The notes: generated by a model not told the origin, from the sequence alone. Shown: positions 48,024 to 63,950, counted from the first letter of the stretch. The stretch is DNA of 64,000 nucleotides from an uncultured Planctomycetaceae bacterium (GCA_964598535.1 CAZRCI010000028.1:1489-65488); one strand, 5' to 3'. Made by a program: numbers and translations.

Positions 48024-49466
48024 TTACTTCTTGGGTTCGCGCCGCAACCGCAGCCAGTCGCTATGAAACGAGCCCGGCTTGTCGGTCCGCTCGTAGGTGT
48101 GAGCGCCGAAATAATCACGCTGCGCTTGCAGCAGGTTCGCCGGCAAACGTTCCTGCCGATAGCCGTCGAAATAGGCCAAGGCCGCCGAGAACGCGGGCGT
48201 CGGCACGCCCAACTTGATCGCCGTGCAAACCACGTGGCGCCACGCCGGTTGGGCCTTTTCGACCGCTTCGGTGAAGTAGGGCGCCAACAGCAGGTTCTCG
48301 AGCCGCGGATCGGCGTCGAACGCCTCCTTGATGCGGTCCAGGAACCGTGCGCGAATGATGCACCCGCCCCGCCACAAGAGCGCGATATCGCCGAAGTTCA
48401 ACGGCCAGTCGTGTTCTTTCGCCGCCGCCGCCATTTGCACGAAGCCCTGGGCATAGCTACAGATCTTCGAGGCGTATAGCGCGTGTCGGGTTTCTTCTAT
48501 AAACTGTTTTTTGTCGTCCTCGAACTTCGCCGCCGGGCCCTTGAGCACTTTGCTCGCTCGCGTGCGCGCGTCTTTCATGGCCGACAGGCAGCGGGCGTAC
48601 ACGGCCTCGGTCACCAGCGTGCTGGGCACTCCCAAGTCGAGCGCCAACTGGCTCATCCACTTGCCGGTTCCCTTGGCGCCGGCCTTGTCCAGCACGTAGT
48701 CGACCAGGTAGTTGTCCGTATCCGGATCGCGCACGCTGAAGATGTCGCGCGTGATTTCGATCAGATAGCTGTCCAGCTCGCCGCGGTTCCATTCGTCGAA
48801 CACGTTGTACAGCTCTTCGTTCGACAGCCGCAGGGCGTGCTTGAGCACGAAGTAGGCCTCGCAGATAAGCTGCATGTCGCCGTACTCGATGCCGTTATGC
48901 ACCATCTTCACATAATGTCCCGCGCCGCGCGGCCCCACCCATTCGGCGCAGGGAATGTCGCCGTTCGGGCCCACTTTGGCGGCGATCGCCTGGAAGATCG
49001 GCTTCACCAGCGGCCACGCGGCGGGCGAACCGCCGGGCATCATGCTGGGGCCCTTGAGCGCGCCCTCTTCGCCGCCCGAGACGCCCGTGCCCACGTACAG
49101 CAGGCCCTTCGCTTCGACCTCGGTCGTGCGGCGCTCGGTATCGACATAGTAGCTGTTGCCGCCGTCGATGATCACGTCGCCCTTGTCCAGCAGCGGCAAG
49201 AGCTGTTCGATCACGGCGTCGACCGGCGGACCGGCCTTGACCATCAGCATCACCTTGCGCGGTGCTTTCAGGCTGGCCACCAGCTCCTCGACCGTGTGGC
49301 AGCCGACGAAGTTCTTGCCCTTTGCCCGGCCGCCGATGAAGTCGTCCACGACCTTCGTCGTGCGATTGAAAACGGCGACGTGATAGCCGCGGCTCTCCAT
49401 GTTCAGAGCCAGGTTCTCGCCCATCACCGCCAGGCCGATCAGTCCGATGTCGCAATTCGCAGCCAT
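48024..49466 (-). CDS. gnd: 6-phosphogluconate dehydrogenase (decarboxylating)
   Basis: IGLIGLAVMGENLALN, GGNSYY, and the conserved C-terminal tail RDYFGAHTYER. Confidence 0.95.
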   Translation of the reverse strand: MAANCDIGLIGLAVMGENLALNMESRGYHVAVFNRTTKVVDDFIGGRAKGKNFVGCHTVEELVASLKAPRKVMLMVKAGPPVDAVIEQLLPLLDKGDVIIDGGNSYYVDTERRTTEVEAKGLLYVGTGVSGGEEGALKGPSMMPGGSPAAWPLVKPIFQAIAAKVGPNGDIPCAEWVGPRGAGHYVKMVHNGIEYGDMQLICEAYFVLKHALRLSNEELYNVFDEWNRGELDSYLIEITRDIFSVRDPDTDNYLVDYVLDKAGAKGTGKWMSQLALDLGVPSTLVTEAVYARCLSAMKDARTRASKVLKGPAAKFEDDKKQFIEETRHALYASKICSYAQGFVQMAAAAKEHDWPLNFGDIALLWRGGCIIRARFLDRIKEAFDADPRLENLLLAPYFTEAVEKAQPAWRHVVCTAIKLGVPTPAFSAALAYFDGYRQERLPANLLQAQRDYFGAHTYERTDKPGSFHSDWLRLRREPKK

Positions 49467-49551
49467 GATTTAATTGATTTACTGTTGCTTAGGTTGGTTC
49501 TTGGAGGGGGGCGCTTTCGGCCCAATGCAGTCGCGACCCGATTCAGGCGTT

Positions 49552-50412
49552 CTATCGCTTCCACGGAGGCAACTCGGGCAGGTAGCCTTCGAACTCGGCC
49601 AGCAGCTTCTGTTGGTATTCGCCGGCGAACGTGCCGTTCAAAAATCGGTCGATGCCTTCCTCGTGCAGCCGTTTCCAGCTTGCTTCCTCGTGTCCGGGGT
49701 TGATCGGATAGAACAACGCGTCGTTGGCCACCGCCGCCTTGTGGTCGCCCGGGGCGTCGCCAATCATGAGCGTGTGGTTCGGTTTGTACTTCTTGGCGTT
49801 GGCCAAGGTTTCTTTCTTCGAGCCGATTTCCTGCCCGCAGATCGCCCGCACGTACCTGGCCAGGTCGTGTTCTTCCCACTCGCGCTCGAGGGCCTCGTTC
49901 GGCGTGGCCGAGACCACCAGCAGGTCGGCCTTCGCCTGGAGCTTTTCCAGGCATTCGCGCACAAACGGAAACGGCGGCACGTTGCTCACCACCTCGGTCA
50001 CCGTGGCGTTCACCGCCTGCGACCAGGCCAGCGCTCGCGTCAGGTCCGCGTCGCCCGTCTTCCGTACCTCGGCCTCGAGCGCCGGGTTGCCGAGCTTCGT
50101 CTCCCGCTTCATCCACTCGACGATCCCCGCGGGAATGCGAATCTCGACATTGCGGGCGATCACCTCGGGCCGCTGCTTGAGCCACTCGAGCGCCTCGATC
50201 AACGCCGGAAAGCGGTTGATTCCCCGGCTTTTCGAGTACAGGTTCACGAATTCGGCCGCCTCGCGGGCGTACTTGCTCACGCCGGCCAGGCCATAGTGCT
50301 TGATGATGTTCGGAATGAAGCACTCTTTGTGCTTCACTTCCATCGTGTCGAACGCGCAGCCGTCGGAATCGATGCCGACTAGGAACTCATGCTGGGGAGT
50401 AATTTCGTACAT
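49552..50412 (-). CDS. HAD-superfamily hydrolase
   Basis: Motif I GIDSDGCAFD and motif IV-like LMIGDAPGD. Confidence 0.7.
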   Translation of the reverse strand: MYEITPQHEFLVGIDSDGCAFDTMEVKHKECFIPNIIKHYGLAGVSKYAREAAEFVNLYSKSRGINRFPALIEALEWLKQRPEVIARNVEIRIPAGIVEWMKRETKLGNPALEAEVRKTGDADLTRALAWSQAVNATVTEVVSNVPPFPFVRECLEKLQAKADLLVVSATPNEALEREWEEHDLARYVRAICGQEIGSKKETLANAKKYKPNHTLMIGDAPGDHKAAVANDALFYPINPGHEEASWKRLHEEGIDRFLNGTFAGEYQQKLLAEFEGYLPELPPWKR

Positions 50413-50451
50413 AAACTTGTGGATGTTATCGCGATTGCTTGAAAGGTCTTT

Positions 50452-51741
50452 TTATTTACGGTCGGCCTGGGGGACATACTTGCCCAGCTTTTGCGTGGCA
50501 TGAATCGGCTGAAACCGCGTCATCCGGAAGCGGCCGTCCACGAGCGGCATCGTGAGCATGTCTTCGCCCACCAGCGGCTTGGCGTAACGCACGAAGTCGT
50601 CCGTCACGTCGTTTCCTTCGGCGGTGATCCACTGCTGGGGGAACGTCCGCTCGCTGTTGGCCACCTCGGCCAGCGGCACCTTATCGTACCGCACGCTGTA
50701 GATCGGCGGCTCGTTCCGCAGAATCGTCGACATGTAGCCGTTCTCGCCCCGCGCGGCGAGCAGCGCCGCGAGCTGGCCGCTACGATAGGCTTCTTCCAGG
50801 TCCACGGTCGAAGCCAGCGCGATCGCGTGCCGCTGGTCGGTGCCCGGCACGTTGCCGCGGGCCGCGCCCTTGGCCGCCAGGCCCACTTTGTTCAAGTGGT
50901 TTACCACGGCCTGGGCCACGGTCATCTGGCTGCTGCTGAACATCACGTGGCCGAACGAGTCGCGCACCTCGCCCAGTGAGCCGACGTCGAACCCTTCGCT
51001 CACCACGACCACGCAGCGCCCGCGCTTGCGAAGCTGGTCGTTCACCTGGTCGGCCAACTGCTCCAAGGAACAGGGGCTCTCGGCCAGGTAGATTTGCAGC
51101 GGCATCTCGCGCGCCGGATCGGCCAGCCGCGCCGCGGCCGGAATGTAACCGATCTTGCGCCCCATCGCCTGCATCACCAGCACGGGGTCGGCTGGCGAGG
51201 AGCCTTCGTTCTCTTCGTTCGCGGCCTGCACCATGTGCATCCAATACTTGGCCACCGAGCCGTACCCCGGCGTGTGGTCGATCAGCTTGAACGCGCTGTC
51301 GCCGACGTCGTTGTCGATCGTCTTCGGCACGCCCACGCCCGTCAGGTCCAGCCCACGCTCGCGGGCCAGCGCGGCCACCTTGTTGGCCGTGTCCATCGAG
51401 TCGTTGCCGCCGATGTACAGAAAGTACCCCACGTCGTGAGCCTTGAAGACTTCGATCACCCGGTCGAAATCTTCGGTCTGATTCGGCTTGAGCTTGTAGC
51501 GGCACGTGCCGATCGAACCGGCCGCCGGCGTATACCGCAGCAGCGAAACTTCCTCGGCCGGTTGGGCCGAGAGGTCGAGCAGTGCTTCCTTCAGCACCCC
51601 TTCGATGCCGTGTACGGCGCCATAGACCGTGCCGATCTCGGCCAGCTCGCGGGCGGTTTCAATAATCCCCCGCAAGCTGTTATTGATGACGGGGCTCGGG
51701 CCGCCGCTCTGGGCGACAACCATGTTTCGGGGCTTGGACAT
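50452..51741 (-). CDS. 6-phosphofructokinase family, probably PPi-dependent
   Basis: Internal ATG 51741. SGGPSPVINN and PKTIDND. GGNDS has Asp at the position that is Gly in ATP-dependent PFKs. Confidence 0.85.
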   Translation of the reverse strand: MSKPRNMVVAQSGGPSPVINNSLRGIIETARELAEIGTVYGAVHGIEGVLKEALLDLSAQPAEEVSLLRYTPAAGSIGTCRYKLKPNQTEDFDRVIEVFKAHDVGYFLYIGGNDSMDTANKVAALARERGLDLTGVGVPKTIDNDVGDSAFKLIDHTPGYGSVAKYWMHMVQAANEENEGSSPADPVLVMQAMGRKIGYIPAAARLADPAREMPLQIYLAESPCSLEQLADQVNDQLRKRGRCVVVVSEGFDVGSLGEVRDSFGHVMFSSSQMTVAQAVVNHLNKVGLAAKGAARGNVPGTDQRHAIALASTVDLEEAYRSGQLAALLAARGENGYMSTILRNEPPIYSVRYDKVPLAEVANSERTFPQQWITAEGNDVTDDFVRYAKPLVGEDMLTMPLVDGRFRMTRFQPIHATQKLGKYVPQADRK

Positions 51742-51871
51742 ACGGCAACACCAGGGGGCGCATTCGGGCCGGCAAGAAACCCAAATGGTAACAGCCGCTC
51801 GGCAAGCGCGAAAGCCCCTGAATCGGCGGCGGAAAAGCCCGCGGAGAACGCCTCGCTTTCGAGAAATTGCG

Positions 51872-53194
51872 CTACGTATACCGCACGCCACGATGCTCCG
51901 GCTCGAAGAACGCCGGCAACATCCCATCCACGCGCAGCAGCCCCTTGCGAGTGAGCGTCACCTGCTGGTCATCGAACGTGAGCAACGCATCGTCCGCGTG
52001 TCGCTGGAACTCGCCGCGCCAGTGGTCGAGGATGTCGACCCCGAACTTACGGCGGAAATAATCCACGTCGAGCTGTCCCGTCTTGAGCTGCAAGATCATC
52101 TCGCGGACCAGCCGTTGATGCGGCGTCGGTCTTAGCCCGCGATACAGCGGCAACTCTCCCTGTTCCAAGCGGCCGACGTATCCGGCCCAGTCGGGCTCGT
52201 TCTGATAGTGGACGCCCGAGGCGTGCCCGAAGCTGGCGACCCCGGTCGCCAGCAGGTCGCTGCCGTGCCACAGGTTGTCGCGGTAGCTGAAGTTCACCTT
52301 GCGCTTGTCTTTGACCATCGTGTAGGCGCTCGACGCGCTGTAGCCGCCCGCGGCCAGCTCGTCGAACGCGTAGCTCACCCAGTCGCGTTTCAGTGGCCAG
52401 TCGGCCACGGGCGTTTCGATCTGGTTGCCCAGAATGTCCTTGGAATAGACCGTGTTGAACGGCAATTCCATCTGGTAGATCGTGACGCTGTCCGGAGCGA
52501 GCGCGATCGTCTTCGCAATGCACTCGCGCCAATTCTCCCACGTCTCGCCGACCATGCCCGCGATCAGGTCGATGTTCACGTTCGGAAAGCCGGCCGCGCG
52601 AATCCAGTCCCAGGCCTTGTAGACTTCGCCCGAGAGGTGCGCCCGGCCGTTCTCTTCGAGCACGGCGTCACTGAAGTTCTCCACGCCCAGGCTCAAGCGC
52701 GTGACGCCCAGCTCGCGGAGCGTGGCCACCTTGGGTTCCGAGAGCGTGCCCGGCTCGCACTCGAAGGTGACTTCCTCGGCATGGTCCCAGTTGATGTTCG
52801 CCCGCAGCCGATCCACCAGCCGCGTGAGCTGCTTGCCGCTCAGAAACGAGGGCGTCCCGCCGCCAAAGTACACGAAGCGAAACGGCCGGCCGCCCATCAC
52901 TTCGAGTTTGCTGACCAGCTCGATTTCGTGCGCCAGCGCCGAGACATACGTTTCCACGTCGTCCGCGCGCTTGTCCGTATACACGCGAAAGTAGCAGAAC
53001 TTGCACCGCTTGCGGCAGAACGGAATATGCAGGTAAAGCCCCAGCGGCGCCGGCTCCGAGCCGCCCGGCGGCACAAGTGGCGGCGCGTGCAGCGCGGCGC
53101 GCACGTCGGCGAGCGACTCGGCCGACCATTGCGAGAACGGCGGATAGTTCGAGATGAAGTAACTGCCAACCTCGGTTTTCGATTCCGTTGCCAT
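51872..53194 (-). CDS. HemN-family radical SAM protein (coproporphyrinogen III oxidase-like)
   Basis: LYLHIPFCRKRCKFCYF (CxxxCxxC), GGGTPS, HemN C-terminal domain. Confidence 0.85.
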   Translation of the reverse strand: MATESKTEVGSYFISNYPPFSQWSAESLADVRAALHAPPLVPPGGSEPAPLGLYLHIPFCRKRCKFCYFRVYTDKRADDVETYVSALAHEIELVSKLEVMGGRPFRFVYFGGGTPSFLSGKQLTRLVDRLRANINWDHAEEVTFECEPGTLSEPKVATLRELGVTRLSLGVENFSDAVLEENGRAHLSGEVYKAWDWIRAAGFPNVNIDLIAGMVGETWENWRECIAKTIALAPDSVTIYQMELPFNTVYSKDILGNQIETPVADWPLKRDWVSYAFDELAAGGYSASSAYTMVKDKRKVNFSYRDNLWHGSDLLATGVASFGHASGVHYQNEPDWAGYVGRLEQGELPLYRGLRPTPHQRLVREMILQLKTGQLDVDYFRRKFGVDILDHWRGEFQRHADDALLTFDDQQVTLTRKGLLRVDGMLPAFFEPEHRGVRYT

Positions 53195-53297
53195 TGCTCA
53201 ACCTCGCTCTCGCGGCACGCGCCGCTTTTTCCGAATCGATTTCCGCAAGTCTCGACGGCGAAGCCCCGCCCCAGGGTAACTCAAAAGTTCAAGCTGG

Positions 53298-53328
53298 GTG
53301 CCACTGCTGGCTTATCCAGCAGTGGCAC
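53298..53328 (-). terminator. 13-bp perfect hairpin downstream of the PQQ-propeller gene; its left arm recurs at the window end
   Basis: GTGCCACTGCTGG (53298-53310), loop CTTAT, CCAGCAGTGGCAC (53316-53328). Confidence 0.6.
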
Positions 53329-53376
53329 ACGGAACAGTCCAAGATGAAACTCTGAGTAGCCCTGAACCTCGCCCCA

Positions 53377-54543
53377 TTACTTCTTCGCCCCGAAACAGTA
53401 CAACGTGCCGTCCATGTTGCCGATCACCAGCCGGCCGCCGGCGACCGCGGGTGAGGCGACAAAGTCACCGCCGGCCTCATATTCCCAAACCTTCTTCCCA
53501 GTTTTTCGATCGAGCTCGTACAGCCGTCCGTCCGAAGCGCCGACGAACGCGCGATTGCCCACGACGACCGGCGACGAATCGACCCGCGCTCGCGTGCGAA
53601 ACTTCCACAGCTCTTTGCCCGTCGCCGGTTCGAGGGCGTACACCGTTTTATCGCGCCCGCCAAAGATCACCGCGGCCGCGTCGAGCGCCCCGCTCGAACG
53701 CAGCGGCATGTTCTTGCCCGTGTTCATCGTCCAGCGCACTTTGCCCTCGCGCCAATCGATGCAAAAAAACGTCGAGCCTTCGGTGCCAAAGTACACGCAG
53801 CGTTCGTCCGCGGCCGGCGTCGAGCCGGTGGGGCCGTCGATTTCGACGGTCGTGATCGCTTCGCCTTTATCCAGGTCGACGATGTGCAGCTTGGCGTCGC
53901 AGCCGGCCAGAAACGCCCGGCCTTCGACCACGGTCGGCTGGCAGCGAATCTGATCGCCGATCGTATAGGTCCACACCTCCTCGCCCGTCGCGGCCTTCAG
54001 GCAATAGAGCGTGGAGTCCTGCGATCCGAACAGCACGGTGTCTTTGTAGAAGTTCGCTCCGGAGTTGATCTCCGCGCCGGCTTCGAAGCCCCACAGCGGC
54101 TTGCCCGTGGCCGCTTCGAAGCAGTAAAACCGCCCGTCGCTGTCGCCGGCGAACACCCGCCCTTCACGCACGGCGGCCGGCGCCGTAAAGCCCAGATCCG
54201 TGTGATAACGCCACTTTTCCTTCCCATCGGCCAACGAAAGCACGTACAATTCGCCATCCAAACTGCCGGCGTACACCAGGCCGTCGGCGATCGCCACCGT
54301 AGCTTCGAAGCCGTGGTCCTGGCTGTTGAACTTCCACAGCACTTCGAGCTTTTCCGGCAATTCGCCGCTGGCGATGCCCGTGGCCATCGGATCGCCGCGG
54401 AACACCGGCCAGGCGTTCGCGGGCGAGGTGTTGCTCGGAGTGGCGGCGTTGGCGAAAGCGGATGCCGCGAGAATAGCGCACACCAGTGGCGCAAACGCAG
54501 CCATGCGCCGGATCGCGTTTCGTGGCCAGATATTGAACGCCAT
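53377..54543 (-). CDS. secreted PQQ-like beta-propeller repeat protein
   Basis: ATG 54543, 9 nt after GAGAGGGG. Signal peptide MAFNIWPRNAIRRMAAFAPLVCAILAASAFANA. Repeated G-x-LY-x-L-D-x-x-TGK-x-W blades. Confidence 0.8.
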   Translation of the reverse strand: MAFNIWPRNAIRRMAAFAPLVCAILAASAFANAATPSNTSPANAWPVFRGDPMATGIASGELPEKLEVLWKFNSQDHGFEATVAIADGLVYAGSLDGELYVLSLADGKEKWRYHTDLGFTAPAAVREGRVFAGDSDGRFYCFEAATGKPLWGFEAGAEINSGANFYKDTVLFGSQDSTLYCLKAATGEEVWTYTIGDQIRCQPTVVEGRAFLAGCDAKLHIVDLDKGEAITTVEIDGPTGSTPAADERCVYFGTEGSTFFCIDWREGKVRWTMNTGKNMPLRSSGALDAAAVIFGGRDKTVYALEPATGKELWKFRTRARVDSSPVVVGNRAFVGASDGRLYELDRKTGKKVWEYEAGGDFVASPAVAGGRLVIGNMDGTLYCFGAKK

Positions 54544-54575
54544 TGCGAAAAGCCCCTCTCGCGCCTTTACCGCAA

Positions 54576-55727
54576 TCAAAACGCCGCTTCGTACAGGGCG
54601 AGCAGTTCCGCCTCCCCTACCCTACGCGGATTGAACGTGCCGGTCCACTGTTTGGCCGCTTCGGCCGCCATTTCAGCGAGTTTCTCCCGTTCGACACCGC
54701 ACGCGCCGAGTCGAGTGGGCAGGCCCGCCTTCGCGACCAGCTCGGCAACGAACTCCGCGAGCCCCGCAAAGCCGCTCTCCGGGCGAGGAAAGCCATTCGC
54801 GCCGCCCGTGCCTTCGAGCAGGTCTTGATACCAAGGGCCAAACTCCGCGCCGTTGAAGCGAATCACGTGCGGCAGCATCAGGCCGATCGCCCGGCCATGC
54901 ACGATGCCATACCGGGCCGTCAGCGGATTGGCCAGCGCGTGGGCCGCCCCCAGCATCGAGTTTTCGATCGCCAGCCCCGCGAAGCACGCTCCCAGTTGCA
55001 TCGCGCCGCGCGCGTCCAGGTTTTCCGGCTCATCGAGCACGCGTGGGAAGTTCTCGGCCAGCAGCAGCCACGCTTCGCGGCTGAAAGCCAGAGAGACCGG
55101 GTTGCGCACCTTCGTTACATAGGTCTCGAGCGCATGGGCGATCGCGTCGATGCCGGTCAGCGCGGTGACCACGGGCGGTTGCGAGACCGTCAGCGTAGGG
55201 TCGAGAACCGCTACCCGGAACGAGGCTTTCTTATCGCCGCAGGCCATCTTGGCGTGCGTCTTGGCGTCGGAGATCAGGGCGAACGACTGCGTTTCGCTGC
55301 CCGTGCCGGCCGTCGTGGGGACCGCGATCATCGGTAGCATCGGCCGCGTGGCCTTGCCCACGCCCCAGTAGTCCTGCATCCGGCCGCCGCCCGAGTAGAG
55401 GAAGTTGATGCCCTTCGCGCAGTCCATCGAGCTGCCGCCGCCCAGGCCCACGATCAGCTCGGGTTGATACCGCTTGGCAATCGCCACCCCGGCGTCGACG
55501 TTGTCCGTCGTGGGGTTTTCTTCCACGCCGTCGAAGAGTTGGACCTCGATGCCGGCCTTGGCCAGCGATTCCAGCCCGCGTGCCGCGTGGCCCGCCTGCA
55601 CGATCCCCGGATCGCTGACGACCAGCGCCCGCCGGGCGCCAAGCTCGCCGGCCAAAGCCCCCAGCAGGTCGATCTTGTCGGGCCCAAACACGATTCGCGT
55701 GCGCGGCTGGAAGTCGAAAGGAATCAT
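54576..55727 (-). CDS. iron-containing (group III) alcohol dehydrogenase
   Basis: GLGGGSSMDCAKG and metal-binding His motifs (IDAIAHALE, GAAHALANP). Confidence 0.9.
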   Translation of the reverse strand: MIPFDFQPRTRIVFGPDKIDLLGALAGELGARRALVVSDPGIVQAGHAARGLESLAKAGIEVQLFDGVEENPTTDNVDAGVAIAKRYQPELIVGLGGGSSMDCAKGINFLYSGGGRMQDYWGVGKATRPMLPMIAVPTTAGTGSETQSFALISDAKTHAKMACGDKKASFRVAVLDPTLTVSQPPVVTALTGIDAIAHALETYVTKVRNPVSLAFSREAWLLLAENFPRVLDEPENLDARGAMQLGACFAGLAIENSMLGAAHALANPLTARYGIVHGRAIGLMLPHVIRFNGAEFGPWYQDLLEGTGGANGFPRPESGFAGLAEFVAELVAKAGLPTRLGACGVEREKLAEMAAEAAKQWTGTFNPRRVGEAELLALYEAAF

Positions 55728-55813
55728 GCACGCATCGCGGTGGGGTGAATTCGGGCAGGCAGTATGACATCCGGAACGCCGCCGGGGGCTTGTCCCCCGG
55801 GAGGCGACCGTTT

Positions 55814-57253
55814 CTACCGCATCGCGGCCAGACGTTCTTCAGGCACCTGGTACGCTCGGGCGCGGAACAAGAATTCCACGATGTTGCCTTCGTGGGGTTG
55901 CAGCCAGTCGAGCTTGATCGTCGGGATCGGCCCGATGTTCAAACGGTCGATGTGTGTGGCGTCGGTCAATTGCTGTTGAAGCTTCGCGTCGTTCGTCAGC
56001 GCCGTGCAGACCAGCGTCGGACCGATCGATTCGAGCATCTTGTCCTGCGGGCATTCCACGACGCTCGCGAACGGATACATATACTCGGCCTTGGCCAACG
56101 TGTTGCCAGGGCTCTGGCAGTGAACGATCGTCGGCCGCAGGTACGCGCAGCGCTCCTTCTCTTCCAGACGCGGACCATATTCGCTGGTCATGTCCGTGAC
56201 GCCGTCTTCCCGCAAGCCGGCGGAAATCTGGTTCCAGATCGCCGCCGCGGCGCCCGGAATCGTGAACGCCGCCAAGGCCGCCTTGGGATCCTCGGGCGGC
56301 AGCACCGGCACGGGGCCGAGCTTTTTCGCCAATGCCGCGGCGATTTCTTTTGTGTGCCGCGAGGCCCAAATGCCCGAGCAGTTGATGCAGCCGCGGCCGC
56401 TGTTGAGATAAATGCTGTCGGCCATCAGGTCGATGTACTTTTCCCAATCGTCGACCACGTCGTCGCCCAACAGGATCTTGCTGAACCCGGGACCGTGCGC
56501 CTGCACCTTGGGGTTGCCCTTGTAGCGTTCGACCGTCGGCGTGCCGCCAAAGATCATGCTCCGGTCGCAACTCGCGAGCACCGCCGCGCCGACGTCCGGC
56601 CCGCCGGGATAGATCGAGATCGCCTCGGCCGGAATGCCCGCCTGCGTAAACGCGGCCGTCATCCGGTACGGCGTCCACGGCTCTTGCGGGCCGGGTTTCA
56701 ACACCAGGCCGATCTGCATCGGGATCACCGGCAGCCACAGCGTATGTACGCCGGGCGAGTTCGACGGCAACACCAGCCCCACGGCCGGCGATTGCGCCTG
56801 GTAGCTCACCACCACGCCCCGGCTTTCCACGCCGAACCCGTTGCTCAGAATGTTCAGGTCCAGCCCCCGCGTCAGCGCGTCGAGCATCTGGTCCATGTGC
56901 GACAGCACGAAGAAGTTCTTCTGCATGTTCGCCTTGCACATATGCTCGGGCAGCCCGGTCGAGGCCGATTGCATGTGCGCGAACTCGTCGGGCGACTGTG
57001 TGCCGTCGCCCAGCGGCAAGGTCGCGTTCAGGTACAGCTCGCCCGCTTTCTTGACGCGTTCGATCAGATCGGCAATCGGAATGTCGCGCAGTACCTGGCG
57101 GGCAGTGGCCGCCTTGCGCATGTCGCGTTGCAGCAGGCCGCCATTGGCCTGGCTCACCTTGGCGATCGGTTCACCCGTGATGAAGTGCTTGACCTCGTCG
57201 GCTTCGAGCGACTCGTAGGGTTTGCCCCAGCGAAGAATTGGAATATTCAGCAC
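55814..57253 (-). CDS. aldehyde dehydrogenase superfamily protein (possibly acyl-CoA/acyl-protein reductase, LuxC-like)
   Basis: GTG start after GAGGA; 479 aa. Candidate catalytic Cys in NSGRGCINCSG. Atypical N-terminus MLNIPILRWGKPY. Confidence 0.7.
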   Translation of the reverse strand: MLNIPILRWGKPYESLEADEVKHFITGEPIAKVSQANGGLLQRDMRKAATARQVLRDIPIADLIERVKKAGELYLNATLPLGDGTQSPDEFAHMQSASTGLPEHMCKANMQKNFFVLSHMDQMLDALTRGLDLNILSNGFGVESRGVVVSYQAQSPAVGLVLPSNSPGVHTLWLPVIPMQIGLVLKPGPQEPWTPYRMTAAFTQAGIPAEAISIYPGGPDVGAAVLASCDRSMIFGGTPTVERYKGNPKVQAHGPGFSKILLGDDVVDDWEKYIDLMADSIYLNSGRGCINCSGIWASRHTKEIAAALAKKLGPVPVLPPEDPKAALAAFTIPGAAAAIWNQISAGLREDGVTDMTSEYGPRLEEKERCAYLRPTIVHCQSPGNTLAKAEYMYPFASVVECPQDKMLESIGPTLVCTALTNDAKLQQQLTDATHIDRLNIGPIPTIKLDWLQPHEGNIVEFLFRARAYQVPEERLAAMR

Positions 57254-57437
57254 GTGTGGTCCTCAGTGTGTTAACCCAGGGCCGCGACGCGGTCGCGGAA
57301 TATCGGTACGGATACCGCGCTGCCGCCCCGGTCCAGCCGGGCTCTTAAACGGGTTTCAGTTTGCGGCGGAGACTTTCGTGAGTCCTTGGATCTCCAGGTA
57401 CTCTCAGGCGTCGCCAACAAGGGCTCTCCGGCTGCGA

Positions 57438-58556
57438 TCAATACACGCCGACGGTCGTCGCTTCGGCCAACTCGTGGAACGGGCGCACGCCGCTCACTCC
57501 GTCCCAGGGATACTTGATGTAGGGCGTCTCGCGTTCGCCTTCGTCCCGTTCCAGAAAGCCCGGCACGAAGAATTCCTTGGTCAGCGTCGTCAGCTTCACG
57601 CGGCCCGTCTCGCCGTAGCCCACGATCTTGTGCGGATCGTTGAAGTCGACGATCTCCAGCACGGCCCGCGGTTGCGGCGCATAGTACGAAATCTTGTAAC
57701 CATCGTCCGGGGTCACCGGCTTGCTGCATGCCAGGCCCATCAGCGTATTGCCATACGTGGGCGTCATGTACACGCCTTCCAGGTACTCTTCCATCGCGAA
57801 CCGGGTCCACTGGGGCGTAAACTCGGTGCCGCCGGAGAAAATGCCGGTGATGCCCATCTCGTGAATCGTCTTGCCCCGCTTTTCCAGTTCGAGCGCCAGC
57901 GCTTCGAGCAGCTTGGGCGTGGTGAACATGCAGCGGATGTCGTGTCCCGCGCCGAGAATCGTGATCGCCTGGTCGATGCAGTGCTTCTTGTACTCTTCCA
58001 GATGTTCCATCCAGCCCTTTTTGATGAGCTTGATGACCCACCGCGGGTCGAGGTCGATGCAGAAGCAAACGCCGCCGCGATGTTGGCACAGGTGCTCGAC
58101 GGCCAGTCGCAGCCGCCGCGGGCCCGAGGGGCCCAGCATCAGCCAGTTCGCCCCGTGTGGAAAGTATTCGTCCGGCAGCGTGTTGCTGAACAGCGAGTAG
58201 TCGATCCGAAAGTCCTCGATGGCGATGCGGCTTTTGGGAACGCCCGTCGTGCCGCCCGTTTCGAACACGTAGATCGGCTTGTTGGCGTACGCCTGGGGAA
58301 CCCAGCGGCGCACCGGGCCGCCGCGCAGCCACTCGTCTTCGAACGGGTCGAACTTCTTCAGATCGTCAAACGTGTTGACCTCTTTCAGCGGATCGAACTT
58401 CAGGGATTGGGCTTTCTCCAGCCAGAACGGGCAGCCCGTCGACGGATGGAAATGCCACTGCACGGTTTCATACGTCTGGGCATCCAGTTGGTCGCGAGCC
58501 CGTTTGACCGCCGACGTAAGTTCTTCCTGGTTCGACTGCTGGAGTGTGCTCATCAA
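57438..58556 (-). CDS. adenylate-forming enzyme, PaaK / F390-synthetase / LuxE-like
   Basis: 372 aa. P-loop-like FETGGTTGVPKS and later IFSGGTEF. Smaller than canonical acyl-CoA synthetases. Confidence 0.7.
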   Translation of the reverse strand: MMSTLQQSNQEELTSAVKRARDQLDAQTYETVQWHFHPSTGCPFWLEKAQSLKFDPLKEVNTFDDLKKFDPFEDEWLRGGPVRRWVPQAYANKPIYVFETGGTTGVPKSRIAIEDFRIDYSLFSNTLPDEYFPHGANWLMLGPSGPRRLRLAVEHLCQHRGGVCFCIDLDPRWVIKLIKKGWMEHLEEYKKHCIDQAITILGAGHDIRCMFTTPKLLEALALELEKRGKTIHEMGITGIFSGGTEFTPQWTRFAMEEYLEGVYMTPTYGNTLMGLACSKPVTPDDGYKISYYAPQPRAVLEIVDFNDPHKIVGYGETGRVKLTTLTKEFFVPGFLERDEGERETPYIKYPWDGVSGVRPFHELAEATTVGVY

Positions 58557-58780
58557 ATCTCCTCGCTCGGTGGGAAGCGGTCCGCCGTTAACAATTCGAC
58601 GGTGGGCTCGCCGGTGTTATCGGGGTGGGAACTGTGGGGCGGCGGACCGAATACTATGAAAAATACCAGCCGCTGCGGGCAAACACAACCGCCGGACGCC
58701 TCCGCGCAACTGCCTCCGCGGAAACTACCTAAGGGCCCTAATCGTCAAGAAGTTCAACGCCACGCATGGCCAGATTTTTT

Positions 58781-58810
58781 TTGACACTCGCCCCCGCCCC
58801 GGGGTATGCT
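58781..58810 (+). promoter_or_regulatory. sigma-70-like promoter candidate for the CBS gene
   Basis: TTGACA (58781-58786), 18-nt spacer, TATGCT (58805-58810), preceded by a T8 run. About 86 nt upstream of ATG 58896. Confidence 0.35.
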
Positions 58811-58895
58811 TTTGGGTGCAGATCCGGCAGCGAAGAGTGCGCATCAGCTTTCACGTCCGCGCAAATCAAAACTCGTACCAGCGGGAGGCCGTTCC

Positions 58896-59336
58896 ATGTT
58901 CCTCCGTGAGATTCTGCAAACCAAGGGGACCCGCGTCCACACGATTGAGCGCGATGACTCGCTCCAAGAGGTTGTCGATCGCTTGGTCCGCCATAACTGT
59001 GGCTCGCTGGTGGTGGTTGATTCTCGCAACTCCGAAGCGTGCATGGTGGGGATCATCACCGAGCGCGACATTCTTCGCGCGTGCGCCAGTCACCGCTGTC
59101 CACTCAATGCCTTGAGCGTGGCCGACGTCATGACGCACGAGGTCGTGACCGGGACGCCCTGCGACTCGATTGAAGACGCAATGGGCCTGATGACCGTCCG
59201 GCGCATTCGACACTTGCCCGTGATTGACGACGGCACGCTGGTCGGCCTCGTTTCGATCGGCGACGTTGTCAAAACCCAGCACGACCGCCTGACGATGGAA
59301 AACCACTACCTCAAGAGCTATCTGCATTCCAGCTAA
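58896..59336 (+). CDS. CBS-domain pair protein
   Basis: ATG 7 nt after GGGAGG. Two CBS repeats (GSLVVVD...GIITERDILRA and HLPVIDDGTLVGLVSIGDVVK). Confidence 0.8.
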   Translation: MFLREILQTKGTRVHTIERDDSLQEVVDRLVRHNCGSLVVVDSRNSEACMVGIITERDILRACASHRCPLNALSVADVMTHEVVTGTPCDSIEDAMGLMTVRRIRHLPVIDDGTLVGLVSIGDVVKTQHDRLTMENHYLKSYLHSS

Positions 59337-59381
59337 GGGGCCGCCGCGCTGCCGGTCGAGGGCACGCGTCCAAGACAAGAC

Positions 59382-59421
59382 ACGTCCCGGGGGGGGGCTT
59401 TCCTCCGGGACGTAGTTTTTT
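59382..59421 (+). terminator. rho-independent terminator of the CBS gene
   Basis: Stem ACGTCCCGG (59382-59390) / CCGGGACGT (59405-59413), then AG plus T6. The 3' half GGGACGTAG plus T-run is duplicated at 59425-59440. Confidence 0.65.
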
Positions 59422-59458
59422 GGGGGGACGTAGTTTTTTTCCGGGCCTTAAGTTCGCC

Positions 59459-60400
59459 TTAATTCTTCGTCGCCGCTTGAAGCTGGCGCACGTCTTTCGG
59501 CAACGGAAAGTACACTTCCTCCTCGCGGATGGAACGTGACTCGACGCTCGCGCCAAACTTGTCCACCAGCAGATTGACGCATCGTTCGACGACCGTCTCG
59601 GGCGCGCTCGCCCCGGCCGTGACCAACACCGTGTCGTCCGCTTGGAACCAGCCCAGATCGATATCTTCGGGCCCGTCGATCAAATAGGTGCGCGGCGTCG
59701 ATTCGCTTGCCAATTCCGCCAGACGCTGGCTGTTCGAGCTGTTCTGGCTGCCGAGCACCAGCACGACGTTAGCCTCGCGAGCCAGAATCTTCACGGCCTC
59801 TTGCCGGTTCTGCGTCGCATAACAAATGTCTGCCTTCGGCGGACCGACAATTTGCGGGAAGCGTTCCTCGAGCCGGCGAATAATCCGGCTGGCGTCGTCG
59901 ACACTCAGCGTGGTCTGGGTGAGATAGGCGAGTTTCGGGGTCGTCAGTTCAAGCTGGTCCACATCCTCGGGCGATTCCACGAGCAGGATCGCTTCGGGCG
60001 CTTCTCCCATCGTGCCAATAACTTCGTCGTGCCCCTCGTGGCCAATCAGGACGATCGTGTACCCTTCCTTGGCGTAGCGAATCGCTTCCAGGTGAACCTT
60101 GATCACTAGCGGGCACGTGGCGTCGATCGTCCGCAGCCCGCGCTCGGCCGCGACCCTGCGAATTTCGGGCGAAACGCCGTGAGCGCTATAGAGCAACGTT
60201 TCGCCGGGCGGTACCTCGGCCAGATCCTCGACAAACACGGCCCCGCGCGTCCGAAATCGTTCCACGACATACTTATTATGGACGATTTCGTGATACACGT
60301 AGACCGGCGTTCCGACGATCTGGATCGCCAGTTCCAGCGTCTCGATGGCCATGTTGACGCCGGCGCAAAAGCCGCGCGGGCTGGCGAGGAGGATTTTCAT
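59459..60400 (-). CDS. ispH: 4-hydroxy-3-methylbut-2-enyl diphosphate reductase
   Basis: Internal ATG 60400. MKILLASPRGFCAGV, with conserved Cys and His contexts (TCPLV, VIGHEGHDEV). Confidence 0.93.
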   Translation of the reverse strand: MKILLASPRGFCAGVNMAIETLELAIQIVGTPVYVYHEIVHNKYVVERFRTRGAVFVEDLAEVPPGETLLYSAHGVSPEIRRVAAERGLRTIDATCPLVIKVHLEAIRYAKEGYTIVLIGHEGHDEVIGTMGEAPEAILLVESPEDVDQLELTTPKLAYLTQTTLSVDDASRIIRRLEERFPQIVGPPKADICYATQNRQEAVKILAREANVVLVLGSQNSSNSQRLAELASESTPRTYLIDGPEDIDLGWFQADDTVLVTAGASAPETVVERCVNLLVDKFGASVESRSIREEEVYFPLPKDVRQLQAATKN

Positions 60401-60607
60401 GCGTAGGCCACTGCTCCTTGGCGCTCTCGGAGGCTTGCGGCAGTTCGCATCCGTGCTATCGCGAGCCGCGGTCCGCCTTTGCAAGGGGTAAGCAAATCAT
60501 CATAATGTGTACCGGCGAGATTGAGAATAGTCGCACGCACCTCCGCGGAGCCGCATCGTGCGAACCGCAATCCCACCCACGATATCACGGACGGGCGGAA
60601 GAAATAG

Positions 60608-61528
60608 ATGGGCGAGCTTTCGCTAGCCACCGAGCTGGGCCAATGGGGGCCGGCCCGGCGCACCGCGCGCCGCTGGACCCCCGCCGAGGCTGTTGCCTAT
60701 TGTCGCGATTTGGCCCGCCGGCATTATGAAAATTTCACCGTCGCCAGCCTGCTGCTGCCGCGCGACCTCGTTCCACACTTTCATGCCGTCTATGCCTATT
60801 GTCGCTGGGCGGATGATCTGGCAGACGAAACTGGCGACGCCGAGCGAAGCCTCGAACTGTTGAATTGGTGGGAGGCGGAACTCCACCGCTGCTATGCCGG
60901 CGAAGCCGAACATCCCGTGTTCATCGCGCTTCGCGAAACGATTCGTAAGTTCGAAATTCCCATCGAGCCCTTCCGAAACTTGCTGATCGCCTTTCGGCAG
61001 GACCAGCGGAAAGCCCGCTATGCCTCGCACGACGAGGTACTCGACTACTGCCGCAACTCGGCCAATCCCGTGGGGCGGTTGGTACTGTATCTTGGCCGTT
61101 GCCACGACGACGATCGCGGGCGGCTCGCCGACGACGTCTGCACGGGTCTGCAACTCATCAACTTCTGCCAGGACGTCAAACGCGACTGGCAGCAGGGACG
61201 CGTCTATCTCCCGGCCGACACGCTCGCGCGCCACGGCTGCGCGCTCACCATGCTCGACGAAGACGCCGCGACTTCCGAATTGCGGGCCGCGCTCGAAAAG
61301 GAAGTCGAACGCGCCGAGCAGTACCTCGCCAGCGGCGACCAACTCGTGCTGCGGATGCCGCGCGATCTGAGGCTGGACGTGGCGCTCTTCACCGCGGGGG
61401 GCCGAGCGATTGCCCGCGAGATTCGCCAGGCCCGGTTCGACGTCTTGCACGCTCGGCCGCGCGTCTCCAAACTGGCCCAAATCAAGTTGCTTGCCGCCTG
61501 CTGGTGGCGGACCCGTAGGATACCCTAA
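60608..61528 (+). CDS. hpnC: squalene synthase HpnC (squalene/phytoene synthase family)
   Basis: YENFTVASLLLP, the Asp-rich motif YCRWADDLADE, and its position before hpnD-hpnE. Confidence 0.8.
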   Translation: MGELSLATELGQWGPARRTARRWTPAEAVAYCRDLARRHYENFTVASLLLPRDLVPHFHAVYAYCRWADDLADETGDAERSLELLNWWEAELHRCYAGEAEHPVFIALRETIRKFEIPIEPFRNLLIAFRQDQRKARYASHDEVLDYCRNSANPVGRLVLYLGRCHDDDRGRLADDVCTGLQLINFCQDVKRDWQQGRVYLPADTLARHGCALTMLDEDAATSELRAALEKEVERAEQYLASGDQLVLRMPRDLRLDVALFTAGGRAIAREIRQARFDVLHARPRVSKLAQIKLLAACWWRTRRIP

Positions 61529-61554
61529 CCACGTTCGGCAAGGATTTGCCCCCG

Positions 61555-62472
61555 ATGATGACGAGTGGAGTGCTGGAACAAGCGATGCCCCCCGAGTTGC
61601 TCGAAGCCAGCTATGCGCATTGCCGGGAGATCGCGCGCCGCTCGGCGTCCAGCTTCTATTATTCCTTTCTGCTGCTGCCCGAGCGGCAGCGACGGGCGAT
61701 GTGCGCGCTGTATGCCTTTCTGCGCCGCACCGACGACCTGGGGGACAGCGATCTGCCCCTCGGCGAGCGCCGCGCCGCGCTTGCCGGTTGGCGGCAATCC
61801 TTCCGCAGGGCCATGACGGGCGAGCACGACGACCCGCTCTTGCCCGCCCTGGCCGACACCGTCAGCGGTTGTGGAATCGACCACGCCCATCTCGAAGCGG
61901 TCATTGATGGCGTGGAAATGGACCTCGAACCCACGGGCTACGAAACGTTTGCCCAGCTCGAAGTCTACTGCCATCGCGTGGCCTCCGCCGTCGGGCTCGC
62001 GTGTTTGCCCATTTGGGGCTGCACCAATCGCGAGGCCATCGACCCAGCCAGAAGTTGCGGGCTCGCGTTCCAGCTCACCAATATCCTCCGCGATCTGAAA
62101 GAAGACGCCGATCGCGACCGGGTCTATCTGCCGCGCGAGGACTTCGCGCATTTTGGTTACGCGCCCGAGCAATTGCGCTCCGGAGTGCGCGACGACCAGT
62201 TTCGGGAGCTGATGCGTTTCCAGGTGGCTCGCGCCGAGAGCTTGTACGAAGCCGGGAGCCGGCTCGTTACGCACCTCTCGGCCGATGGACGCCGCGTTTT
62301 CGGAAGCATGTTGGCCGTCTACCGCGCCCTGCTCGCCGAGATTAAACGCCGCGATGGCGATGTGCTGGATACACGCGTCCAGCTCAGCCGCTGGCAAAAA
62401 ATGCGGATCGCTTCCCAGTGGCTGGCCGGCGGACCCGCGATCGATGATCCGCTCGGCGCCGCTTCTTCATGA
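61555..62472 (+). CDS. hpnD: presqualene diphosphate synthase HpnD
   Basis: ATG 10 nt after AAGGA. SSFYYSFLLLP, YAFLRRTDDLGD, NILRDLKEDADRDRVYLP. Confidence 0.8.
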   Translation: MMTSGVLEQAMPPELLEASYAHCREIARRSASSFYYSFLLLPERQRRAMCALYAFLRRTDDLGDSDLPLGERRAALAGWRQSFRRAMTGEHDDPLLPALADTVSGCGIDHAHLEAVIDGVEMDLEPTGYETFAQLEVYCHRVASAVGLACLPIWGCTNREAIDPARSCGLAFQLTNILRDLKEDADRDRVYLPREDFAHFGYAPEQLRSGVRDDQFRELMRFQVARAESLYEAGSRLVTHLSADGRRVFGSMLAVYRALLAEIKRRDGDVLDTRVQLSRWQKMRIASQWLAGGPAIDDPLGAASS

Positions 62473-63950
62473 CCATGTCGGACGAGCGCCCGCATGTCGT
62501 GATCGTTGGCGGAGGGCTCGCCGGGCTGGCCGCCGCCGTTGCGCTCGCCGAAGATTGCCGCGTCGAACTCTTCGAAGCACGCCGCGCGCTCGGCGGCCGG
62601 GCCGGTTCGTTTTGCGATCCAACCACGGGCGAAACCCTCGATCACTGCCAGCACGTCAGCATGCGCTGCTGCACGAACCTCGCGGATTTCTCTCGCCGCG
62701 TCGGAATCGACCAACTCTTCCGCCGCGTAGATACGCTACGATTCATCGGTCTCGATGGCCAACCTAGCGACTTGTCGGCGGGCTGGCTGCCCGCTCCCGG
62801 ACATCTGGCCGGTTCCTTCTGCGGCCTCAAGTTCCTTTCGATCCGCGAGCGGCTCGCGGTTGCCCGCGCGATGTGGCGGCTCATGCGTTTGCCAGTGCGC
62901 GACGACGAACGCTCGCCCACGATCGGCGCATGGCTGCGCGCGGCGGGCCAATCCCCACGCGCCATCGATCTGTTTTGGAACGTCGTCCTCGTGAGCGCCC
63001 TGGCCGAGGAACTCGATCGAGCTTCTCTGGCGGCAGCGCGCAAGGTAATCGTCGATGGCTTTCTTACCAACCGCGAAGCCTACGTCGTCGAAGTTCCCCG
63101 GGCGCCGTTGAGCGAGCTCTATGGCGCTTCGCTGCTGCGTTGGTTGGCGGCGCGCGGCGTATCGGTCCATCTCGGCGCGGCCGCCAAACGCATTGCCCAC
63201 CAAAGCGGTCCACGGCTGGCGCTTGCCGATGGACGCGAGGTTCGGCCAGATCACTTGATCGTCGCCGTGCCTTGGCACAAGCTTCGCGACCTGGTTGATC
63301 GTGACCTGGCCGGTCGCTGGCCGTGGCTCGACGAAATCGATTCGGTGGCCGCCTCGCCCATCACGGGCGTGCATCTCTGGTTCGATCGCCCGATCATGCC
63401 CCACGATCATGCGGTGCTGGTGGGTCGGCTCAGCCAATGGGTGTTCCACCGCGCGCTTCACGCGCCAACGAATCCCGCGGACTCCCCGAGTGTTACGGTG
63501 GACCTGTCCAGCGACGCTCGCGATGTGAATGGCGGGCTCTCGGAAACTTCGGCGGCAAAGCACTACTATCAAGTCGTCATCAGCGCTTCGCGGAATCTTG
63601 CTGGCCGCAATCGCGACGAGGTGGTTTCCGAGGTGTGCCGCGAATTGGCCGCCATCTGGCCGCAGGCCGCCGATGCACGGCTTTTGCATGCGCGCATGGT
63701 CACGGAGCACGCGGCCGTATTCAGCACCCGCCCGGGCCTCGACCGCATTCGCCCGGCGCAACAGACGGTCGTGCATGGGATTCATATCGCCGGCGATTGG
63801 ACCCGTACTGATTGGCCCGCGACGATGGAAGGCGCGGTGCGCAGCGGTTACCTCGCGGCCGAAGGCGTGCTGCGCTGCTTGGGCCGACCGCGCCGCGTAT
63901 TGGCGGGGGATCTATCGCGTTCGTGGCTTGTGCGGCTCTTGGTTCGTTAG
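62469..63950 (+). CDS. hpnE: hydroxysqualene dehydroxylase HpnE (FAD amine-oxidase fold)
   Basis: ATGA overlap with the hpnD stop. Dinucleotide fold VVIVGGGLAGLAAAVALAE and C-terminal IAGDWTRTDWPATMEGAVRSG. Confidence 0.8.
   Translation: MTMSDERPHVVIVGGGLAGLAAAVALAEDCRVELFEARRALGGRAGSFCDPTTGETLDHCQHVSMRCCTNLADFSRRVGIDQLFRRVDTLRFIGLDGQPSDLSAGWLPAPGHLAGSFCGLKFLSIRERLAVARAMWRLMRLPVRDDERSPTIGAWLRAAGQSPRAIDLFWNVVLVSALAEELDRASLAAARKVIVDGFLTNREAYVVEVPRAPLSELYGASLLRWLAARGVSVHLGAAAKRIAHQSGPRLALADGREVRPDHLIVAVPWHKLRDLVDRDLAGRWPWLDEIDSVAASPITGVHLWFDRPIMPHDHAVLVGRLSQWVFHRALHAPTNPADSPSVTVDLSSDARDVNGGLSETSAAKHYYQVVISASRNLAGRNRDEVVSEVCRELAAIWPQAADARLLHARMVTEHAAVFSTRPGLDRIRPAQQTVVHGIHIAGDWTRTDWPATMEGAVRSGYLAAEGVLRCLGRPRRVLAGDLSRSWLVRLLVR

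Follow-up and report, generated by a model that had tools for sequence, protein, structure and literature searches.

A probable two-protein carboxylic acid reductase at the core of a gene module co-inherited among planctomycetes

In a 64,000-nucleotide stretch of DNA from an uncultured Planctomycetaceae bacterium (GCA_964598535.1 CAZRCI010000028.1:1489-65488; the window, hereafter, meaning the whole of that stretch), four consecutive genes on the minus strand encode, in their order of transcription, a small stand-alone adenylating enzyme (the ligase), a protein of the aldehyde dehydrogenase (ALDH) fold, an iron-dependent alcohol dehydrogenase (Fe-ADH) and an exported beta-propeller. They are followed by a gene for a HemN-like radical S-adenosylmethionine (radical SAM) enzyme. 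A sequence-only reading of this DNA had placed the four open reading frames (ORFs) here, which the ORF listing bears out, and had taken them for an operon in which a LuxE/LuxC-like fatty acid reductase pair and the Fe-ADH would convert a carboxylate into an aldehyde and then an alcohol. It is now apparent that these four genes form the centre of a larger module inherited as a set among planctomycetes, and that the first two very probably form a carboxylic acid reductase of another lineage, that of EhpF/EhpG and GriC/GriD. The proteins were scored against the Pfam and NCBIfam profiles (the latter at E <= 0.001), and one sample of 201 Planctomycetota genomes was searched with each of them. The names of the hits place the host in the Pirellulales.

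The ligase carries the sequence ETGGTTGVPKS, of which the GGTTGVPKS part had already been singled out and is present in the translation; we take TGGTTGxPK to be the phosphate-binding motif of the ANL adenylating enzymes. It reaches 25.6 bits against the Pfam AMP-binding profile, under the cut-off of 29.9, and NCBIfam yields only the DVU_1553 family for it, at 20.6 bits where 300 are required. Among solved structures the sole strong match is EhpF of Pantoea agglomerans (structures 3HGU, 3HGV and 3L2K), with residues 29-360 of the ligase aligning to residues 28-356 of the 369 of EhpF (PDB 3hgu, E 5.1e-41), and the identity to the Pantoea protein amounts to 32% over 367 residues (E 1e-44). The enzyme ends where EhpF ends, and thus comprises the N-terminal ANL domain only, the C-terminal ANL domain being absent. 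The family to which it belongs is large, with 1,456 clusters at 50% identity found at E <= 0.001 and 292 at E <= 1e-30.

The partner protein is recognised by the Pfam Aldedh profile (75.9 bits) and aligns with Pantoea EhpG over 428 residues at 25% identity (E 3e-30), whereas the best solved ordinary ALDH is matched at E 4e-15 over residues 175-401 only, about half the length of the protein. Against the named ALDH models its best score is 31.1 bits for a cut-off of 800, and all of their cut-offs are at or above 448 bits. In ALDHs, a Cys serves as the nucleophile, an Asn contributes to the oxyanion site, one Glu is the general base for thioester hydrolysis and another Glu belongs to the nicotinamide site. 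An alignment of 13 rows, made up of nine planctomycete sequences, EhpG, an archaeal homologue and the two ordinary ALDHs of this genome, shows Cys289, Asn165 and Glu390 of the partner to be invariant (Cys289 and Asn165 in 13/13 rows). At the position of the general base, the two ordinary ALDHs read ELGGKS and the partner HGPGFSK, and the Glu is replaced in all 11 EhpG-like rows. Since the Glu used by ordinary ALDHs is absent, the partner would not be expected to hydrolyse a thioester, and the residue pattern seen in the alignment would be that of an enzyme in which the acyl group is reduced rather than hydrolysed.

EhpF and EhpG belong to the cluster for D-alanylgriseoluteic acid, a phenazine, and share the layout of the window pair: an ANL N-terminal-domain enzyme of about 370 residues, followed by an ALDH-fold protein of about 475 residues which, like the window partner, keeps the catalytic Cys and lacks the hydrolytic Glu. 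On the Pantoea agglomerans plasmid the EhpF gene is directly followed by that of the ALDH-family EhpG, and a second adjacent pair matching both proteins is found in the archaeal Halalkalicoccus. Bera et al. are said to have proposed in 2010, from structure and genetics, that EhpF and EhpG take phenazine-1,6-dicarboxylate to its 6-formyl compound, a conversion that has reportedly never been reconstituted. Some Streptomyces plasmid homologues of the ligase bear the RefSeq name 'arylcarboxylate reductase'. The other characterised system is GriC/GriD of the grixazone pathway in Streptomyces griseus (Suzuki, Ohnishi and Horinouchi, 2007), where, according to the accessible part of a later account, GriC activates 3-amino-4-hydroxybenzoate as its acyl-AMP, which GriD then reduces to the aldehyde (PMC10179220, citing Suzuki 2007). 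Compared by that description, it too is a two-protein, ATP- and NAD(P)H-dependent system that carries an aromatic acid to the aldehyde through an acyl-AMP. On the strength of these relationships between sequences, the first two genes of the window very probably encode a two-protein carboxylic acid reductase of the EhpF/EhpG (GriC/GriD) type.

The planctomycete pair differs from both systems in its company and its conservation. Phenazine genes accompany EhpF/EhpG and none are found here; the planctomycete clade is far more conserved, at 74-94% identity across the 80 best Pirellulales loci; and its pair travels with the Fe-ADH, the HemN-like radical SAM enzyme, a chorismate-lyase-fold protein and a halogenase. 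The grixazone pathway, in contrast, ends at the aldehyde, without an Fe-ADH or radical SAM partner. LuxE/LuxC and the one-polypeptide carboxylic acid reductases (CARs) and Lys2 likewise adenylate an acid and then reduce it to the aldehyde. Unlike CAR and Lys2, the window pair has neither a carrier domain nor a phosphopantetheine arm, and its reductase has the ALDH fold, whereas the reductase domain of CAR has the short-chain dehydrogenase/reductase fold.

The third gene had been assigned to the group III alcohol dehydrogenases, and this assignment holds: both Pfam domains are matched over their full length (Fe-ADH at 168.8 bits, ADH_Fe_C at 130.4 bits) and the GGGS nucleotide motif is present. 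The translation shows GLGGGSSMD, DAIAHALE and two later His residues; the Asp and His of these motifs are presumably the metal ligands. None of the named NCBIfam equivalogs is matched above its cut-off, ErcA scoring best (292 against 550). The fourth gene encodes a propeller matched by PQQ_2 (205.2 bits) and Beta-prop_ACSF4 (187.8 bits). The signal peptide attributed to it is borne out by the translation from the ATG at 54543, which begins with a basic and then a hydrophobic segment ending in AFA, as expected of a predicted exported protein. Among 46 orthologous propellers most, as judged by eye, have an exported-type N-terminus with a hydrophobic segment and, often, a Cys in lipobox-like surroundings after it.

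The fifth protein matches Radical_SAM (79.7 bits) and HemN_C (27.2 bits) and carries CxxxCxxC at residues 60-67. Its similarity to HemN (1olt, E 2e-33) is about as high as that to NocN, a class C methyltransferase (9p2u, E 5.5e-29), the HemN match being slightly better and the NocN match covering residues 25-254 only. In the alignment to 1olt the protein reads FCYF opposite the FCGC of HemN, and thus lacks the Cys that follows the cluster motif. It falls below the cut-offs for HutW, HemN, HemW and HemZ (HemN: 174.4 bits against 324.95). Since the genome, which lacks HemF, contains a gene of the ChdC/HemQ family, the radical SAM protein need not be its coproporphyrinogen oxidase. A housekeeping HemN role was considered and appears unlikely, given the score below the cut-off, the occurrence in only the same 41 of the 201 genomes as the other module genes and the ChdC of this genome.

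The distribution of these genes also ties them together. Orthologues of the ligase (E < 1e-100), the reductase (E <= 1e-40), the Fe-ADH (E <= 1e-70) and the radical SAM enzyme (E < 1e-130) each occur in 41 of the 201 genomes, and the four sets are identical, comprising the same 41 genomes from 23 families. The sets coincide even though some of the genomes have these genes scattered; several single-contig Pirellulaceae genomes have the ligase gene, the reductase gene and a block of Fe-ADH, propeller and radical SAM genes megabases apart. Within 6 kb of each other are found ligase and reductase genes in 33/41 genomes, reductase and Fe-ADH genes in 28/41, Fe-ADH and radical SAM genes in 31/41, and Fe-ADH and propeller genes in 25/37. 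The propeller family also occurs apart from the module: 24 of the 61 genomes that match it at E <= 1e-45 fall outside the 41. Both genes of the pair are single-copy in the genome of the window. Sixteen further sampled genomes (L056, for example) carry only distant EhpF-like paralogues, at 30-38% identity, and no EhpG-like orthologue at E <= 1e-40. A link to methanopterin (H4MPT) was looked at and set aside: the cyclohydrolase PF02289 occurs in 14 of the 201 genomes, and although all 14 are module genomes, the other 27 of the 41 are without it.

This distribution also bears on whether a PaaK-type phenylacetate-CoA ligase and an ordinary ALDH could simply lie side by side with no pathway in common. 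The sequence-only reading had likened the ligase to PaaK, and many homologues are labelled 'PaaK-like adenylate-forming protein' by the Joint Genome Institute (JGI). However, no NCBIfam PaaK model is matched at E <= 0.001, the C-terminal ANL domain is missing, and the ligase and the reductase keep to the same genomes and are mostly linked. With the ALDH models scoring 31.1 bits or less and the general-base Glu absent, neither a bona fide phenylacetate-CoA ligase nor an ordinary aldehyde-oxidising enzyme was found here, and the juxtaposition of two unrelated enzymes is scarcely credible.

Gene order was read in the 80 closest Pirellulales loci, 43 of which extend at least 6.5 kb downstream of the ligase gene. 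All five genes follow the order of the window in 31 of these 43, with 12 exceptions, and in 4 of 19 in a wider set (20 loci). The cultured Bythopirellula polymerisocia Pla144 (L127) also carries the five in this order. The unit is not closed at four genes, since the radical SAM gene is part of it. The spacers between successive genes, from the ligase through the radical SAM gene, measure 184, 86, about 30 and 182 nucleotides, and because of these distances the four genes do not constitute a tightly coupled operon.

In the more extended clusters of other planctomycete families, the upstream end consists of two large PQQ-repeat propellers and a sodium:solute symporter, then the ligase; onward follow the reductase, Fe-ADH, propeller, radical SAM enzyme, a protein of about 200 residues without a Pfam match, a flavoprotein, a GT4 glycosyltransferase and a 4HBT-family thioesterase. 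These additional genes are dispersed in the genome of the window. The large propellers have about 775 and about 527 residues in loci L049-L055, and the two are adjacent to each other in this genome too, on contig C8.

The glycosyltransferase and the thioesterase, which accompany the extended cluster in some families, would suit a non-reductive role, in which the adenylate is passed to an amine, an alcohol or the Cys of an ALDH-like carrier without release of an aldehyde, or in which the ALDH-like protein oxidises an aldehyde made by the Fe-ADH. That the EhpF/EhpG conversion has reportedly never been reconstituted would also leave room for it. We regard such a role as distinctly unlikely. The Cys, the Asn and the nicotinamide-binding Glu are all kept in the partner, the loss of the hydrolytic Glu speaks against an acid-forming ALDH, and GriC/GriD, of the same architecture, are reported to yield the aldehyde, so far as the accessible part of the account goes (PMC10179220).

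Two further proteins follow the distribution of the module and point to a substrate. The first is a protein of 185 residues found in 28 of the 201 genomes, all of them inside the 41, and 20 of the 28 have its gene no more than 3 kb from that of the radical SAM enzyme. Its structure model has a predicted local distance difference test score (pLDDT) of 90, and the nearest folds to the model are AF1396/DUF98 (E 7e-9) and then the chorismate lyase of E. coli. The family profile matches 2nwi (E 2e-7), and hhalign pairs the family with E. coli UbiC at a probability of 75% (E 2.6e-5). In this alignment the family-invariant Arg78 and Glu176 fall on an Arg and a Glu of UbiC, which we take to be its catalytic Arg76 and Glu155, the product-binding Arg and the catalytic Glu. 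The model thus assigns the protein to the chorismate-lyase fold, of the UbiC/DUF98 type.

The second is a flavoprotein matched at E <= 1e-87 in every module genome but one (40 of the 41) and in no other genome of the sample; the module genome that lacks it is 87% complete. It shows GGGPAG at residue 13 (GxGxxG) and WFWYIP at residue 219 (WxWxIP), and nine of its ten best PDB relatives are titled halogenase or alkylhalidase, the remaining one being a generic flavoprotein/dehydrogenase (3nix); the best E is 5e-59. By its motifs and relatives the co-inherited flavoprotein is assigned to the flavin-dependent halogenases. In 17 of the 28 genomes, no more than 3 kb separates its gene from the chorismate-lyase-like one.

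Such a pair of genes has a described parallel in the same phylum. Planctomycetales strain 10988, according to the accessible passages of a preprint, has the adjacent genes baaA, chorismate-lyase-like, and baaB, a halogenase, on one strand, and makes 3,5-dibromo-p-anisic acid; the route proposed there runs from chorismate through 4-hydroxybenzoate to 3,5-dibromo-4-hydroxybenzoate, with a methyltransferase that the authors did not place (10.1101/723874). The module likewise has a chorismate-lyase-like and a halogenase gene, adjacent in the 17 of 28 genomes just mentioned. Unlike in the module, no reductase, Fe-ADH or radical SAM neighbour is mentioned in those passages of the preprint.

The pathway that may be envisaged begins with the UbiC-like protein, which would turn chorismate into 4-hydroxybenzoate, whereupon the flavoprotein would halogenate the ring and the HemN-like radical SAM enzyme would perform a radical step, possibly a methylation. 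The 371-residue ligase would adenylate the resulting acid with ATP to an acyl-adenylate, the acyl group would move to the conserved Cys of the partner and leave as the aldehyde with NAD(P)H, and the Fe-ADH would reduce the aldehyde to a benzyl alcohol. The product would be a substituted 4-hydroxybenzaldehyde or 4-hydroxybenzyl alcohol. These catalytic steps and their order, as well as any part played by the radical SAM enzyme and the exported propeller, are put forward as a proposal that is consistent with the homology, the catalytic-residue pattern, the gene order and the identical distribution across genomes observed here. Overall, a two-protein reductase and an Fe-ADH acting within a larger module on a 4-hydroxybenzoate-type substrate is probably the correct reading of the locus. 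That the substrate is an aromatic acid is likewise probable. Its derivation from 4-hydroxybenzoate, perhaps with halogenation and methylation on the way, is suggested because the chorismate-lyase-fold and halogenase partners are co-inherited, and is held more tentatively; whether the Fe-ADH takes the aldehyde on to the alcohol seems to us evenly poised.

The conversion of carboxylate to aldehyde to alcohol thus remains the best-supported chemistry for these genes, but the LuxE/LuxC family basis first given for it does not stand. Neither LuxE nor LuxC (which we take to be PF04443 and PF05893) is matched in Pfam even at E <= 10, and only AMP-binding and Aldedh are hit. A LuxE/LuxC-like reductase supplying fatty aldehydes and alcohols for lipids or waxes would have the same general architecture, namely an enzyme that forms the adenylate, a reductase of the ALDH superfamily that lacks the hydrolytic Glu, and an alcohol dehydrogenase. 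There are also squalene and hopanoid genes nearby, with hpnCDE and ispH in the window and a squalene-hopene cyclase gene after the radical SAM gene in L063, L064 and L087. The nearest characterised relatives of the pair, however, act on aromatic acids, the co-inherited partners are enzymes of aromatic pathways, and a squalene-hopene cyclase is present in 32 of the 41 module genomes and also in 21 genomes without the module. A fatty acid reductase is therefore very improbable, and a requirement of the module for hopanoid synthesis is not supported by this distribution of the cyclase, enriched as the cyclase is.

Several observations weigh against a 4-hydroxybenzoate-type pathway served by the reductase pair and the Fe-ADH. 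The 25% identity of the partner to EhpG is low; the spacers of 86-184 nucleotides and a palindromic insert leave room for doubt over co-transcription; and both the chorismate-lyase-like gene (contig C13) and the halogenase gene (contig C18) lie outside the window. The 185-residue protein is not recognised by Pfam even at E <= 10, and 13 of the 41 module genomes gave no match to it in a search with a single query sequence. The likeness of the module pair to baaA/baaB is one of description, as the preprint, in its accessible part, gives no accession for a comparison of sequences, and 3,5-dibromo-p-anisic acid retains its carboxylate and needs no reductase. The E-value cut-offs for orthologues were set after the gaps in the score lists had been seen, and related genomes are non-independent samples. 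Finally, the symporter directly upstream of the ligase in other planctomycete families and in Halalkalicoccus fits the uptake of an acid from outside as well as synthesis within the cell.

It is because of this symporter that uptake and reduction is the strongest rival. An imported aromatic or other small carboxylate would be converted to the alcohol by the same enzymes, for salvage or detoxification, and the chorismate-lyase-like and halogenase genes would serve some other purpose. The gene directly 5' of the ligase in the extended clusters is indeed that of a sodium:solute symporter (SSF, 130 bits), and a symporter gene is upstream in the archaeal locus as well. The genome of the window has no orthologue of the extended-cluster symporter, so this component is dispensable. 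The halogenase (40/41) and the chorismate-lyase-fold protein (28/28 within the 41), however, share the distribution of the module and in most genomes lie near the radical SAM gene, which would be difficult to account for were they unrelated to it, and there would be no obvious gain in reducing an imported acid at the expense of ATP and two NAD(P)H. Uptake and reduction is therefore judged unlikely, and internal synthesis of the 4-hydroxybenzoate-type substrate is preferred.

A bolder extension of the preferred pathway may be worth stating, although we consider it rather unlikely in its entirety. The module would represent an undescribed pathway of at least seven genes, leading from chorismate to halogenated 4-hydroxybenzaldehydes or benzyl alcohols of the bromophenol type, of which baaA/baaB would be a mere fragment and 3,5-dibromo-p-anisic acid an intermediate or a shunt product. 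The radical SAM enzyme would then provide the unplaced methylation or a C-methylation of the ring, and handling of the product outside the cytoplasm would fall to the exported PQQ-repeat propellers.

To our knowledge, two-protein carboxylic acid reductases are known from just two antibiotic or pigment pathways. That such a pair is kept at 52-94% identity across 23 sampled planctomycete families suggests an as yet unnamed function under strong selection, and the tie to a chorismate-lyase-fold enzyme and a halogenase supplies a concrete candidate substrate. Were the proposal to prove true, the sole published biosynthetic proposal for a halogenated planctomycete metabolite would join a far larger and widespread gene set. 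Small stand-alone aromatic acid reductases are, moreover, of practical interest as biocatalysts. The enzyme type is already known; what is new is the link to the radical SAM enzyme, together with a candidate for the substrate. The papers retrieved on two-component carboxylic acid reductases, one of which deals with a tambjamine reductase, held nothing on this clade as judged by title and the opening of the abstract, and a search for planctomycete clusters that combine HemN, alcohol dehydrogenase and AMP-binding returned no paper. Neither the conserved module nor its proposed substrate was found in print in a search whose coverage mostly excluded subscription journals.

The features of the locus are collected in Table 1, in which two of the starts differ from those of the longest ORFs. 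The longest ORF of the adenylating enzyme spans 57438-58556 (372 residues) and opens at a TTG at 58556; the ATG at 58553, giving 371 residues, is the likely start because the database homologues have 371 residues. The longest ORF of the propeller, 53377-54579 (400 residues), similarly begins with TTG, and the ATG at 54543, its codon 13, is the likely start because a signal-peptide-like N-terminus results. The overlap that had been described between the stop of the Fe-ADH gene and the propeller ORF amounts to 4 bases for the longest, TTG-started ORF and is absent with the ATG.

Table 1. Genes and repeat element of the locus, with window coordinates
Feature	Position	Strand	Basis
EhpF/GriC-like stand-alone adenylating enzyme	57438..58553	-	371 aa; PDB 3hgu match
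EhpG/GriD-like ALDH-fold reductase	55814..57253	-	479 aa; EhpG match
Group III iron-dependent alcohol dehydrogenase	54576..55727	-	383 aa; Fe-ADH and ADH_Fe_C
Exported BamB/PQQ_2-type beta-propeller	53377..54543	-	PQQ_2, Beta-prop_ACSF4, signal-peptide-like N-terminus
Palindromic repeat element in spacer	53270..53366	-	Fold; recurs in genome
HemN-like radical SAM enzyme	51872..53194	-	Radical_SAM and HemN_C; member of conserved unit

The spacer between the propeller and the radical SAM gene holds a hairpin at 53298-53328 that the sequence-only reading took to close the unit. The hairpin exists and its stem is strong, with 13 base pairs without a mismatch and a loop of 5 nucleotides, and the 182-nucleotide spacer that contains it folds at -80.9 kcal/mol (z -3.57). 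The closing of the unit does not follow, since the conserved gene order runs on into the radical SAM gene. There is no U-tract directly after the stem, the hairpin is absent from the list of a terminator scan, and the scan of the minus strand for sigma-70 promoters and terminators gave nothing useful. An Rfam scan of 51500-59500 at E <= 0.1 had no match, nor did an inverted-repeat search at a minimum length of 14, the stem being 13 base pairs. The 13-nucleotide arm recurs in 20 copies in the 5.4-Mb genome, mostly as similar short palindromes, and contigs C38 and C57 carry further copies of the longer palindrome, of about 95 nucleotides, that surrounds the hairpin. The hairpin thus belongs to a dispersed family of palindromic repeats, a copy of which has been inserted in this spacer; it is not a proven terminator and gives no evidence that the unit ends there. 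The copies usually consist of a short hairpin and then a conserved T-rich tail, and others lie at about 63989 of the window (contig C28:65477) and on contigs C18, C29, C37, C38, C43, C44 and C57.

Just upstream of the cluster, at 59459-63950, lie ispH on the minus strand and then hpnC, hpnD and hpnE of squalene synthesis, which score above or near their NCBIfam cut-offs; only the closest relative, L057, has this neighbourhood in common with the window. Elsewhere in the genome (contig C13:97272-99949), a squalene-hopene cyclase gene is directly upstream of the chorismate-lyase-like gene, and in the close relatives L063, L064 and L087 it has the radical SAM gene on one side and the chorismate-lyase-like gene on the other. 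In the window, the stretch downstream of the radical SAM gene, at 48024-51927, holds genes for a pyrophosphate-dependent phosphofructokinase (372.6 bits, above the cut-off), an HAD hydrolase and a 6-phosphogluconate dehydrogenase, an order kept only in L057. A CBS-domain pair protein, encoded divergently from the ligase at 58806-59336, is conserved only in L057 as well, and a sigma-70-like site accompanies it at 58781-58810.

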